A stretch of DNA of 14,974 bases from the UHGV virus genome UHGV-0084874, one strand, 5' to 3'. Both the position numbers and the translations under genes were made by a program. A model generated the notes under the pieces. The model saw only the letters and a program-made list of their open reading frames with translations, ran no database searches and was not told the origin of the DNA. The DNA comes from a virus. Numbering within the stretch: the stretch's first letter is position 1; each line of letters starts with the position of its first letter. Positions 155-9,596 of this stretch are shown here, one piece after another.

Positions 155-181
155 CATAAGAAAGCCCCTCCGGAGAGGGGC
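155..181 (-). terminator. Intrinsic terminator ending module A (leftward)
   Basis: Stem gcccctc/gaggggc (164-181) with loop cgga; the minus strand then reads a U-rich tract (cuuucuuau, from plus 155-163). Confidence 0.45.
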
Positions 182-420
182 TGAAGCCGCATTTCTGTAT
201 CACCATGAACATGGTGCCGGGTGCCTCCCGGTGAGTTCAGCCCGGTGCCACTAAACCCGCGTCATTCTCGTTTTGATAATCAGAGATTATACCGTCACCA
301 GTCGCCCCTCCGCTCAGGGGGATTCACCATGCGAAATTTTTTTAACAAATGCCCAGTCTGACAGGCAACTGTCAACTTACTGAATTGTGAGCAACATAGC
401 ATTTAACGGGGAACCTGTTT
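155..420 (-). repeat. Repeat module copy A (~250 bp), diverged paralog of 642-905
   Basis: Shares near-identical blocks with copy B: aaagcccctccggagaggggctg, atggtgccgggtgcctcccggtgagttcag, gcccctccgc(t/a)cagggggattcaccatgc, ctgaattgtgag, tttaacgggg. Intervening segments are diverged. No conserved ORF. Confidence 0.6.
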
Positions 421-424
421 TCTG

Positions 425-456
425 CAGTAAAAAGGCCCACCGGAGCGGATGGGCCT
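425..456 (-). terminator. Intrinsic terminator (leftward)
   Basis: 7-bp stem aggccca/tgggcct (433-439 / 450-456) around loop ccggagcgga; the minus strand then reads uuuuacu (plus 426-432). Confidence 0.5.
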
Positions 457-641
457 GGAAGGATAGCGGTCATGTGATGCCGGTTTCCCGGTAACTCAGC
501 ACCGGTATCTGAGTCAACGTTTTCTCTACTGGGTCATTTCCGATACGCCCTGCCTGCTGACAGGCTTTCATCACATCTGAAAATATAGCACCCTGACTGA
601 TACTGTAGTACCCAAGGTTCCAGAAACTGTGATGTATCCGG

Positions 642-668
642 CACAGAAAAGCCCCTCCGGAGAGGGGC
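642..668 (-). terminator. Intrinsic terminator ending module B (leftward)
   Basis: Same stem gcccctc-cgga-gaggggc (651-668); the minus strand then reads uuuucugug (plus 642-650). Confidence 0.5.
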
Positions 669-905
669 TGGAGAGTGGCGCTATGTGCCATTGCATGGTG
701 CCGGGTGCCTCCCGGTGAGTTCAGTATCAGCACCTGAACCCGCACAGAAAGGATAAGGGTCGGTGACAAAACACCAGTTGCTGATTGCCCCTCCGCACAG
801 GGGGATTCACCATGCCAGTTTCTTTTAACAAACTCCCCGCAAACCAGACAACAGTCAACCGCCTGAATTGTGAGGTATTTAAAAATTTCAACGGGTAACT
901 GATAC
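642..905 (-). repeat. Repeat module copy B (~250 bp), diverged paralog of 155-420
   Basis: Same conserved blocks as copy A in the same order, offset by ~490 bp. ORF 470-769 overlapping it is not conserved in copy A. Confidence 0.6.
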
Positions 906-998
906 CCTGCTAATCGCCTGATGCTTTCTTTTTCAGCAACGGGAAAGCAACAACCACCACACCCACCAGCCGCCCATTTACCACAAATAAAAAAGCCT

Positions 999-1196
999 TC
1001 ACTGCGGAAGGCGTCTGTAACAACCGAACTGATAGTCTGCCAGACCCGCCATAACCAGCTGGGTCAGTATTAACTGGCAGCGTTCGCGTGAAAGGTAAGT
1101 ATTCTGCGCTATCTCCCCGACTGTCGCCGGTTCGGTAACTCTTAATTCATTAAACACTACTCTGGCGGTTTCTGTCATATCCTGCTGTTTTAGCAT
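999..1196 (-). CDS. Hypothetical small protein (~65 aa), possible winged-helix DNA-binding fold
   Basis: From ORF 999-1283; start re-assigned to the ATG at 1194-1196 (MLKQQDMTETARVV...) with a GGGA-type RBS ~8 nt upstream. The segment VGEIAQNTYLSRERCQLILTQLV looks HTH-like. No family recognised. Confidence 0.35.
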   Translation of the reverse strand: MLKQQDMTETARVVFNELRVTEPATVGEIAQNTYLSRERCQLILTQLVMAGLADYQFGCYRRLPQ

Positions 1197-2926: not shown

Positions 2927-3310
2927 CTACATAATTCGTTCTACATATCTGTCCATCTCCAGCCGGATATCAAGCATCATCAAAATACCATCAATCACCC
3001 CTTCGGCTTTCTGAAGACGTTTACCAATGCAGGTGTCAGAGCATCTATGCTTACGCGCCAGACTCATAAAAGTCATTCCAATGACATAATAATCCACCAA
3101 TAAATCATGCAAATCACTGTTGTTTTTTTTCAAGCGGGCCATGCATCCACAAACGATCATCGCGTCATCGTCGCAACATTGCGGACGAGACTTAACTTTT
3201 GAAGAGATTAGTCCTTTAAATCCAGCAGCAATCGGTGACCAAGTCACATCCTCATGATTGTTTGCAACCCATGCTCCCCAGCGTTCGAGAACCATCTGAA
3301 TATCACGCAT
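2927..3310 (-). CDS. Late-gene antiterminator Q (phage 82 / DLP12 QuuD-like family)
   Basis: 127 aa from the ATG at 3308-3310 ([14 protein letters not shown]...), with a GGAG RBS 7 nt upstream; the ORF-track start at 3325 is a TTG. Cys-rich segment [17 protein letters not shown] is consistent with the zinc-binding Q family. Identification is from memory of the family, not a search. Confidence 0.6.
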
Positions 3311-8230: not shown

Positions 8231-8451
8231 GCCACACCTCCCAGACGCTTAAACATTTTTCCGGAGCAAAAGGCTATAAGCGGCATACTGATGCGGTAAT
8301 TACGGCCCAGCGGTTCACAAATCACCTTCTGACATTCACGGTCAACCAGGCTGACACGTAGAACATGCCCTGCAGGCGTGGTGTACCACTGACCAGGACG
8401 AGGACAACGGAAAGTCTGATTGGTAAACCGTTTGAAAATATTCCGGATCAT
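8227..8451 (-). CDS. Hypothetical protein (74 aa)
   Basis: ATG overlaps the Rha stop (ATGA at 8448-8451) and the stop overlaps the next start, so it sits in the coupled gene chain. Confidence 0.5.
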   Translation of the reverse strand: MIRNIFKRFTNQTFRCPRPGQWYTTPAGHVLRVSLVDRECQKVICEPLGRNYRISMPLIAFCSGKMFKRLGGVA

Positions 8452-9596
8452 TTGCGCCCCCTTACCTCTGAAGGGTTCAGCGACAAATTTATGAGACTGG
8501 CCAGTAGCGCCGCGTCGTTGATGCGGTCATACAGACTTACAGCCAGCGGGGATTCGGCTTTTGCCAACATGGGATAAAGCTGCTGCAGCCAGACCTGATG
8601 AATTGATGAAATGTAGGAATAGAGAACGCTGGCGTTATGTGCAACGTCGCTCAGTACAGAGGGATTTGAAAGCTGTTTCTCCATCTGGTTAAAGGCATTG
8701 ATGTATGCCTCTTTGAACTGGGCAGCACGTTTACCCGTGAAACCCATAGCAAGAAACGCAAAGCCGTCGCGGGTTATTTGATAGCAAGGTAGTTTGCGGC
8801 CTGTGCAATCGGTGTAATCACTCACCGAAAAATTGCGGGAAGTGAATGATGCAGAGCATTCAAGCGTGCGGATCTTTTTCAGTACATCGTCATGACGTTT
8901 GGAGAAGAAGTTGGCAACAGCCAGGGATGAAGTAACAGCCTGACCATCAACAATGGCAATTTCAGGTTGAGTGAGGGTTGGGATCGTAGCCATGATGGCA
9001 GCCTCCGTTGACTGTGGAAAACTTCCACCACCGGAGCTGCGAAACTCACTGGTGGCAGACTGAACAGGGTTCGCAGTACCGGCGTCAACGGAGACCGGCG
9101 AGCCTTTCGGCTCCCCTGCCCAGCCCACCATAATTCTGGCGTGCGTGAGCGCGGACGATAAAAAAGACGCTGGCGCGTCATATATCGCCGTTGACAATTC
9201 CGGGCTGCGACCCCCGGCACCCGCTTTATAAGGTGCCTGAACAGTGTAACGTCCCGGAATGGCAGAATCAATATGCTGGTGGTCCTTCACACTCAACAAA
9301 ATCACGCCTGAATTTCCACAAAGGACTAAAGCACTCATGCGGGTAGTCTTTGCGAAGATAGATAACGCGCTGTGTTTCTGGCTCCCAACGAATAACATGG
9401 ACATAAAGCCCTCTTCCGTCACGAAACCAGCGGTTAAGTTCCTGCACAACTCGCCCCCCACAGTCAGGTAAAGTTCTCTGTGGTTACTTACAGCCAGGTG
9501 ATTTGGTAATCTGCATTCATGCCGTAACAACAGGTGTTCAGCGACGCTGACCACCAGCTGTTGCGACAAACGGTTATTTGCCGTTAAACTATTCAT
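8448..9596 (-). CDS. Rha-family phage regulatory protein (antirepressor-like) with ~200-aa N-terminal extension
   Basis: C-terminal half (IAIVDGQAVTSSLAVANFFSKRHDDVLKKIRTL...GKRAAQFKEAYINAFNQMEKQL) matches the Rha family. The full-length start at 9596 overlaps the upstream stop and has a GGAGA RBS. A second in-frame ATG near 8993 has a strong GGAGG RBS and would give a canonical ~181-aa Rha protein. Confidence 0.62.
   Translation of the reverse strand: MNSLTANNRLSQQLVVSVAEHLLLRHECRLPNHLAVSNHRELYLTVGGELCRNLTAGFVTEEGFMSMLFVGSQKHSALSIFAKTTRMSALVLCGNSGVILLSVKDHQHIDSAIPGRYTVQAPYKAGAGGRSPELSTAIYDAPASFLSSALTHARIMVGWAGEPKGSPVSVDAGTANPVQSATSEFRSSGGGSFPQSTEAAIMATIPTLTQPEIAIVDGQAVTSSLAVANFFSKRHDDVLKKIRTLECSASFTSRNFSVSDYTDCTGRKLPCYQITRDGFAFLAMGFTGKRAAQFKEAYINAFNQMEKQLSNPSVLSDVAHNASVLYSYISSIHQVWLQQLYPMLAKAESPLAVSLYDRINDAALLASLINLSLNPSEVRGRK

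Follow-up and report, generated by a model that had tools for sequence, protein, structure and literature searches.

The window analysed here is the whole stretch of 14,974 nucleotides (nt) from the virus genome UHGV-0084874, and the element under study lies at positions 152–905. This element very probably consists of three head-to-tail small RNA (sRNA) genes of the STnc100 family on the minus strand, each a gene of its own, a judgement that covers both the identification and the gene organization. Units A and B are canonical STnc100 members, and unit M, which lies between them, is a strongly diverged one. The STnc100 family is already catalogued (Rfam entry RF02076, 'Gammaproteobacterial sRNA STnc100'), and the wider family takes in PasD1/PasD2 of enteropathogenic Escherichia coli (EPEC) and EcOnc27/sRNA103 of enterohaemorrhagic E. 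coli (EHEC). An earlier sequence-only reading had interpreted two repeated modules in this element as paralogous leftward sRNA units and not as protein genes; it was right about the sRNAs, and is supported by full-length STnc100 matches, compensatory base changes and Northern-verified, Hfq-associated relatives. What the analysis adds is modest: unit M as a cryptic family member, the organization and recurrence of the array, a better-supported structure and a promoter profile.

Three units with a common core

The whole window was scanned against Rfam at curated thresholds, the gathering score of RF02076 being 47 bits. Unit A (361–152, minus strand) scored 165.6 bits and unit B (844–639, minus strand) scored 141.4 bits, each over model positions 1–206. 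An independent covariance model of the core (R1) was built from 65 sequences, mostly from other genera, and applied without filters to the entire window. It returned 89 bits for unit B (816–692) and 86.4 bits for unit A, and its best match beyond the three units scored 9.6 bits. The invariant motifs UGGUGAAUCCCCCU..GCGG.GGGG and CACCGGGAGGCACCCGGCACCA are exact in A and B; each occurs twice in the window and not once in 200 shuffles. No fourth copy was found in the window by the motif search or by R1. Unit A is nearly identical to the STnc100 unit 3′ of stx2B in the Stx2a phage Stx2_95. Other Rfam families, searched at lenient E values over positions 1–1700 and 30–175, gave noise only (OmrA-B at 21.8 bits, anti-hemB and P9). 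No feature corresponding to IpeX of DLP12 was present in the region of the K-12 record examined (L117, which was not scanned with any model; L numbers denote individual loci throughout).

The two repeated modules described in the sequence-only reading are real. A repeat search of the window returned direct repeats of ~265 bp in two copies, 483–487 bp apart, with blocks at 304–391 versus 787–874 (80% identity), 210–240 versus 694–724 (100%) and 161–186 versus 648–673 (96%). Aligned globally on the minus strand (425–140 versus 910–627), the modules begin to match at GCAG (425/910) and cease to do so just past the terminator; the overall identity is 66%, with blocks at 96–100% alternating with stretches at 47–50%. 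By part, identity reaches 100% in the terminator stem and 96% over helix P5 and the P1 3′ strand, compared with 50% for the P3 insert and 47% for the 3′ linker. A further ~55 nt upstream is also conserved between A and B. Conservation had been placed in the hairpins: these are indeed conserved, but so is the near-invariant junction and loop sequence of a five-helix core, and it is the P3 insert and the 3′ linker that vary. The absence of an open reading frame (ORF) conserved between the copies was confirmed; the frame from a shared AUG reads MVNPPERRGDW-stop (11 codons) in copy A and runs for 28 codons in copy B.

For the structure, one genome per species was scanned with the exact motifs. This gave 110 stretches, nearly all from Enterobacteriaceae (Escherichia, Shigella, Klebsiella, Raoultella, Enterobacter, Kosakonia, Citrobacter, Trabulsiella, Buttiauxella, Pantoea, Erwinia and others). 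Rfam names these stretches STnc100, often only at model positions 32–146, which are the structured core. Alignment of 65 non-redundant cores yielded a five-helix junction of ~105–125 nt (helices P1–P5, Table 1), to which units A, B and M all align (R1). Paired cells made up 92.3% on the 65 cores versus 40–48% with the partners slid, and double-change cells numbered 162 versus 20–57 in the slid controls; none of 500 shuffles reached the observed values. The double changes are located in P1, P2, P3 and P4. The search motif itself fixed P5 and the inner P1 pairs; in members found by the model only, compensated changes occur there as well (GUGAUG/CAUCAC, CAGAUG/CAUCUG, GCGGUG/CACCGC and UCGGG/CCCGA). 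The five-helix structure is thus backed by compensatory changes across the 65 cores. It differs from the RF02076 consensus at model positions 91–97 (266–260 in unit A), where the consensus has a 3 bp hairpin with a 1 nt loop (gcg-A-cgc) that is sterically implausible. Covariation favours P3 around the insert instead, GC-N after P2 pairing with N-GC before P4 (34–88: 25 double changes), and P3 replaces that hairpin. Any likeness to a class II tRNA is limited to helix topology, with five helices and very short joiners except for the invariant AAU after P1. A tRNA or tmRNA was rejected: ARAGORN reported 0 genes in the window, and no tRNA-clan match was obtained at E up to 1 in 1–1700.

Two further observations concern the core. 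A variant with P2 as GCGGC..GCGC, not CCCCC..GGGG, occurs in the early-left region of an EC2 prophage near yfdP (L002, 25462–25585, plus strand) and in other E. coli/Shigella loci (L008 and L108); it scores 80–82 bits on R1 and has no counterpart in the window. Exact STnc100 motifs were also present on contigs labelled Prolixibacteraceae, Mucilaginibacter, Vagococcus, Geobacteraceae and Xanthomonas pisi (L016, L042, L053, L076 and L105). Very short contigs account for L016, L042 and L105 (388–1625 bp); the Vagococcus contig (133 kb) and the Geobacteraceae metagenome-assembled genome contig (44.6 kb) are long. The sequences look enterobacterial and probably reflect contamination or mis-binning.

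The segment between the two modules had been described as unique and as closed by a third leftward terminator. The terminator is present (456–433, minus strand), but the segment is a diverged third copy of the family, as indicated by Rfam, R1 and its fold. Unit M (600–427, minus strand) scores 30.1 bits on RF02076 (E = 4e-5 for that stretch), below the gathering score, and 26 bits on R1 (E = 6e-6), where the next match in the window is that at 9.6 bits. Folded alone, its minimum free energy (MFE) structure comprises an 8 bp closing helix, three internal hairpins, a short linker and the terminator (z = −2.8). This is the architecture of the family with different helix sequences, and the motifs appear in the degenerate versions GAUGAAAGCC and ACCGGGAAACCGGCAUCAC. 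Unit M is found in 673 of the 5426 complete E. coli genomes, as two variants (at least 99% and 86% identity), as well as in five phage records, and it is flanked by two canonical units in every locus examined (L001–L003, PhiR5_2 (L005), L006 and E. albertii (L057)). When the variants were compared (the 86% identity variant being L006), the TGCTATATT element and the transcribed part were almost unchanged and the sequence upstream diverged. Assignment of unit M to PasD was rejected by sequence alignment.

Table 1. Features of the array, helices of the family core and neighbouring genes (window coordinates).
Feature	Position	Strand	Description and basis
Unit A, STnc100-family sRNA gene	152–361	minus	Core 333–208, 3′ linker ~207–183, then terminator
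Unit B, STnc100-family sRNA gene	639–844	minus	Core 816–692, 3′ linker ~691–670, then terminator
Unit M, diverged STnc100-like sRNA gene	427–600	minus	Core 577–471, linker 470–457, then terminator; P1 AUGUGAUG/CAUCACAU
Candidate extended −10 of unit A	339–347	minus	TGT TAAAAA; predicted from sequence and family profile; RNA ~180 nt
Candidate extended −10 of unit B	822–830	minus	TGT TAAAAG; predicted; ends ~7 nt before P1, position fits family profile
Candidate extended −10 of unit M	582–590	minus	TGC TATATT; predicted; identical in the 86% identity variant L006
Alternative upstream promoter-like element of unit A	393–401	minus	TGC TATGTT; predicted from sequence
Unit A terminator	163–182	minus	AGCCCCTCTCCGGAGGGGCT then TTCTTATG; terminator scan
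Unit B terminator	650–669	minus	AGCCCCTCTCCGGAGGGGCT then TTTCTGTG; terminator scan
Unit M terminator	433–456	minus	AGGCCCATCCGCTCCGGTGGGCCT then TTTTT; terminator scan
Convergent intrinsic terminator	124–151 (stem-loop 124–145)	plus	GCCCGCGTCTCCCAGCGCGGGC then TTTTTT; terminator scan; abuts 3′ end of unit A
P1			Closing helix, then invariant joiner AAU
P2			Hairpin CCCCC..GGGG
P3			Helix around hypervariable insert
P4			Hairpin, sequence variable
P5			Near-invariant hairpin CCGGG-AGGCA-CCCGG, abuts 3′ strand of P1
65-residue hypothetical protein	999–1196	minus	S1-CAM-02-A annotation
Moron, 'type I restriction endonuclease'	1662–2819	plus	S1-CAM-02-A annotation
Antiterminator Q	2927–3310	minus	S1-CAM-02-A annotation
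Sialate esterase (SASA/DUF6645)	Starts ~70 bp past left end of window		S1-CAM-02-A annotation
DUF1378, DUF826, holin, lysozyme	Beyond esterase		S1-CAM-02-A annotation

Transcription signals and proposed working

When 65 units were anchored on P1, a −35 element TTGAC and a −10 element TAAAtT emerged, the latter ending ~7 nt before P1, and most units have such a σ70-type promoter. In line with this position, the 5′ end of PasD2 has been mapped to the base at which P1 begins. The candidate extended −10 elements of the three units were located by eye and with the family profile; a simple σ70 scan passed over them, as it reports a promoter only where two good hexamers are present. At the position matching the alternative upstream element of unit A, unit B has TAAATA (~880). 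A start near 386 in unit A would give an RNA of ~235 nt, in agreement with the ~235/247 nt Northern bands of EcOnc27.

A terminator scan of positions 1–1600 gave ten terminator-like sites, compared with 1.7 expected from shuffles. Both modules close, as had been read from the sequence, in the identical hairpin GCCCCTC-TCCG-GAGGGGC (182–163 and 669–650, minus strand). The U-rich tract said to follow it is present, but the tails (TTCTTATGG and TTTCTGTGCC, respectively) are only moderately U-rich and are interrupted. Across the family, a terminator lies within 130 nt in 92 of 147 units.

The arms of P2 (CCCCCUG.GCGGAGGGG) and of the terminator (GCCCCUCUCCGGAGGGGC) are near-equal in A (303–321/163–182) and in B (786–804/650–669), so that a swap of partners is possible. 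The MFE fold of unit A uses such a long-range alternative P2–terminator pairing, and the linker of this unit (196–206) repeats CAUGGUG, which is able to pair with the 3′ strand of P1. These alternative pairings could represent a structural switch or a coincidence.

To the left of unit A, upstream of the convergent plus-strand terminator, a −10-like hexamer (TATTAT) is located at 72–77. Positions 1–151 of the window are nearly identical to the region beside the STnc100 unit of phage Stx2_95 (L118, 3404–3555). The plus strand of 92–151 may encode an uncatalogued convergent partner sRNA of the type described by Tree et al. (2014). Its assignment to AsxR or AgvB (RF02703/RF02702) was rejected: there was no Rfam match at E up to 10, the published sequences are unlike it and it does not carry the ~42 nt 3′ region conserved in AsxR/AgvB, GUAUCUCAUGC.AUUGCCCGAACCCA.UCGGGC-UUUU.

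In the working model, each unit would form its own transcription unit, with an extended −10 σ70 promoter just 5′ of P1 and, in A and B, a possible second start ~55 nt further upstream. The promoter would be followed by the core (~105–125 nt), a single-stranded linker of 15–25 nt that differs between the units and an intrinsic terminator. In a lysogen, each of the three RNAs would be made from its own promoter and end at its own terminator. Once the prophage is induced, polymerase modified by Q at PR′ would read through the three terminators into the esterase and lysis genes; read-through of this kind is established lambdoid biology. By analogy with PasD and EcOnc27, the RNAs are most likely Hfq binders that would base-pair, via the variable 3′ linker, with mRNAs of the host and the prophage, the conserved core acting as a stabilizing or protein-binding scaffold. 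The three units, with their differing linkers and inserts, would then provide three target specificities on a common scaffold. Since the PasD seed lies in the linker and the linkers of A, B and M differ, three Hfq-dependent regulators with different specificities are the simplest model. For these copies, the points at which transcription starts, the dependence on Hfq and base pairing in trans are predictions, the trans-acting mechanism being modelled on the relatives.

Genomic setting and recurrence

Gene order was read from S1-CAM-02-A, a genome that is 99.8% identical to the window. Along the late region, the order is Q, the moron, the 65-residue ORF, a DUF3927 remnant, units B–M–A, the esterase and the lysis genes, by which the array is assigned to the known 'moron' slot that follows PR′ among the late genes of a lambdoid E. 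coli prophage. The location at the junction between Q and the lysis genes that had been proposed is therefore correct, Q lying on one side and esterase–holin–lysozyme on the other. The position directly upstream of the sialate esterase and downstream of Q/DUF3927 is common to the window, the near-identical genome and E2348/69, where the order is Q, DUF3927, PasD2, esterase and holin. In the Stx2a phage the order is Q, tRNAs, stx2A, stx2B, one unit almost identical to A and the esterase, so relatives recur in this slot as PasD2 in the one case and as an STnc100 unit in the other.

A 37-residue ORF (910–1023, minus strand) resembles the C-terminal part of the DUF3927 protein that other prophages encode ahead of PasD/STnc100. 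Here the ORF runs into the 3′ end of the 65-residue ORF and is thus a probable recombination remnant. A minus-strand hairpin with a T-run, CCGCCGTCAGGCGGGTTTTTT, lies at 1321–1345, upstream of the 65-residue ORF and where tR′ is expected. In the window the moron separates Q from this hairpin; EC2 is moron-less and has Q directly adjacent.

Strains with an identical 851 bp array differ in their flanks, with IS1 in EC2, TerB/DUF3927 in SCU-104 and another Q and moron in the window. ABU 83972 is a further strain that carries the array. The 851 bp array (at least 80% of the query) was found in 352 of 5426 complete E. coli genomes and any match in 2781, and the B–M–A arrangement occurs in E. coli, E. 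albertii and isolated phage. The core model identified 144 units in 100 loci. Four units lie within 1.1 kb in Leclercia (L097), four occur in Superficieibacter (L046), three are spaced at ~260 nt in L031 and pairs are present in several Enterobacter genomes. Tandem arrays of two to four units are a recurrent feature of the family in Enterobacteriaceae. In the records examined, RefSeq annotates no RNA gene at the array, and no description of tandem STnc100 arrays or of unit M was found in the literature.

Elsewhere in the window, Rfam matches above threshold were obtained for C4 antisense RNA (78.8 bits; 9048–9135, minus strand) and isrK (58.7 bits; 9160–9236, minus strand). Both lie inside a 382-residue ORF (8448–9596, minus strand) annotated in RefSeq as a Rha family regulator. 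From these matches the region looks like a P1/P7-type c4-ant immunity module, and the annotated start of the Rha ORF may be too far upstream.

Alternative readings and known relatives

Several points weigh against three stand-alone sRNA genes. The U-tracts of A and B are interrupted (UUCUUAUG and UUUCUGUG), which is weak for termination and for Hfq binding. About a quarter of the members elsewhere have no terminator and lie directly before an ORF, so the family does not consist uniformly of stand-alone sRNAs. We infer the promoters and 5′ ends in this strain from sequence, and the disagreement between published sizes (172 nt for PasD versus 235/247 nt for EcOnc27) makes it uncertain where A and B start. 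The core is near-invariant across genera; an sRNA that acts simply by base pairing would not usually be so, and this hints at some other function. Unit M, being below the Rfam gathering threshold and without the invariant motifs, could be a decaying copy. No target or phenotype has been established for any canonical STnc100.

One rival reading takes the units for cis-acting leaders or attenuators, in which the core would sense a ligand or protein and decide, in the manner of a riboswitch, between termination and read-through into the esterase and lysis genes. The layout fits, with a promoter, a multi-helix junction, a linker and a terminator followed by a gene on the same strand. In 17 species the core lies 90–200 nt upstream, on the same strand, of genes for a KdgM-family porin and a pectate lyase. 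This chromosomal subfamily (Klebsiella, Kosakonia, Enterobacter, Raoultella and Citrobacter; L011 810–940, L039 1843–1971 and 15 more, e.g. L022, L024, L032, L068, L073–L075, L101 and L113) has the porin (PF06178) and then a periplasmic pectate lyase (PF06917), and its terminator is often unclear; the placement suggests a leader-like role for some members. At several other loci an ORF with a Shine–Dalgarno sequence begins 25–60 nt after P1 with no terminator between. The 3′ strand of P2 in A and B (GAGGGGC) also complements the 5′ arm of the terminator (GCCCCUC; z from −2.3 to −2.9), the pairing used in the MFE fold of unit A. Across 75 terminator-bearing units, however, complementarity between the core and the terminator 5′ arm is not enriched (mean z −0.47), and only six units, nearly all of the Escherichia type, fall below z −2; a family-wide antiterminator pairing, or a general termination-riboswitch platform, was therefore rejected as unsupported. 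Most units of the family (92 of 147) end in strong terminators, often with no ORF on the same strand close by, a convergent plus-strand terminator stands between unit A and the esterase, and what follows B and M is another sRNA unit and not a gene. PasD, moreover, has many trans partners in RIL-seq. We regard the leader reading of the array as improbable.

A related proposal is that the STnc100 core is itself a functional structured RNA domain, either a ligand- or protein-sensing leader (orphan riboswitch-like) or a tRNA-like mimic, for which we see a small chance. It is prompted by the strong conservation of the core, with near-invariant joiner and loop sequences across Enterobacteriaceae, and by its occasional leader position. 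If this were true, the core would in some cases govern the gene that follows it, be it a KdgM-type porin operon in Klebsiella and Kosakonia or the phage sialate esterase, and would elsewhere be released as a terminated sRNA; tandem arrays would be banks of sensors with different output tails.

That the array is a scar of recombination, illegitimate or homologous, between single-unit lambdoid prophages, with no function of its own, M and perhaps A or B decaying and the terminators acting as passive insulators, is suggested by the high mosaicism of the region, by the differing flanks of identical arrays and by the lack of the invariant family motifs in the sub-threshold unit M. We consider it clearly improbable, as B–M–A is kept in two haplotypes with 86% identical M units and in E. 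coli, E. albertii and isolated phage. The promoter and transcribed part of M are near-identical between the haplotypes while the upstream flank has diverged, all helices of M are kept through different sequences, and arrays of two to four units arose repeatedly in other genera. A coding function, for instance of the MVNPP.RRG... frame from the AUG in P1, is very improbable indeed and was rejected. An in-frame AUG GUG AAU CCC CCU is common to both copies, and ribosome profiling of EDL933 gave high coverage for a few STnc100 copies (ribosome coverage value up to 3.2; PMC5331693), but coverage was low for most copies in the same data. The frames end at different points in A and B, other genera start with GUG-GUG and carry P3 indels of any length, synonymous positions are invariant and the changes are compensatory across helices at the RNA level.

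With three STnc100-family sRNA genes as the preferred reading, the array matters little alone; the family is catalogued, and many lambdoid and Stx prophages carry it in their late region. The cryptic unit M shows that threshold-based annotation undercounts these genes, and a five-helix junction in which P3 covaries around a hypervariable insert improves on the existing consensus structure. The combination of a conserved core and a linker that varies suggests a way in which prophages diversify their regulatory RNAs near toxin, esterase and lysis genes, and a well-defined architecture aids the design of experiments on an abundant Hfq-bound family that adjoins stx2.

Adjacent same-strand sRNA paralogues are familiar from OmrA/OmrB and PrrF1/PrrF2, each with its own promoter and terminator and with conserved and diverged segments, a pattern that can split or broaden the target range. 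Those RNAs belong to the core genome and are short Hfq sRNAs that are largely unstructured, whereas the units here are ~180–240 nt long, have a large conserved multi-helix core and are prophage-borne.

Convergent sRNA dyads between PR′ and the lysis genes were described in eight Sakai prophages (Tree et al., 2014). As in the dyads EcOnc27/AsxR and EcOnc06/AgvB, a leftward STnc100-type sRNA here stands head-on to a plus-strand terminator between the late promoter and the lysis genes; unlike in those dyads, the candidate plus-strand partner is not an anti-sRNA of the AsxR/AgvB type. PasD1 and PasD2 of EPEC are abundant RNAs of 172–173 nt with many Hfq RIL-seq partners, and their seed is located in the linker that leads up to the terminator (PMC8550237). 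A 2026 preprint concludes that PasD and STnc100 have a common origin and places PasD immediately 5′ of the esterase; in it, pasD copies are on average >1.5 Mb apart, and tandem duplication is argued against for the pasA copies (bioRxiv 10.64898/2026.05.13.724894). The array shares with PasD1/PasD2 (Pearl Mizrahi et al., 2021; Zhu, Shabalina and Storz, 2026 preprint) the slot and the overall fold, and PasD is, like unit M, a sub-threshold relative of STnc100 (PasD2 reaches 41 bits with the STnc100 model and 30 bits with R1). By sequence, however, none of A, B and M is PasD: the similarity to PasD2 is confined to the shared core, the tails differ and the PasD seed UGUGAG is absent from all three in an alignment with PasD2.

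The closest known systems are the STnc100 copies of EHEC. In EDL933 there are 11, all transcribed and one Northern-verified (PMC5331693). The copy 3′ of stx2B, EcOnc27/sRNA103, was crosslinked to Hfq and detected at ~235/247 nt, the 247 nt form being destabilized without hfq (PMC4104026); overexpression of sRNA103 raised fimZ and espA. Units A and B are full-length like these RNAs and have the same core motifs, terminator type and prophage slot. The array differs in having three units in tandem where the known prophages have one each (the 11 EDL933 copies are all far apart), in a middle unit that lies below the family threshold and in having no stx or tRNA cargo upstream, in contrast to the EcOnc27 locus.

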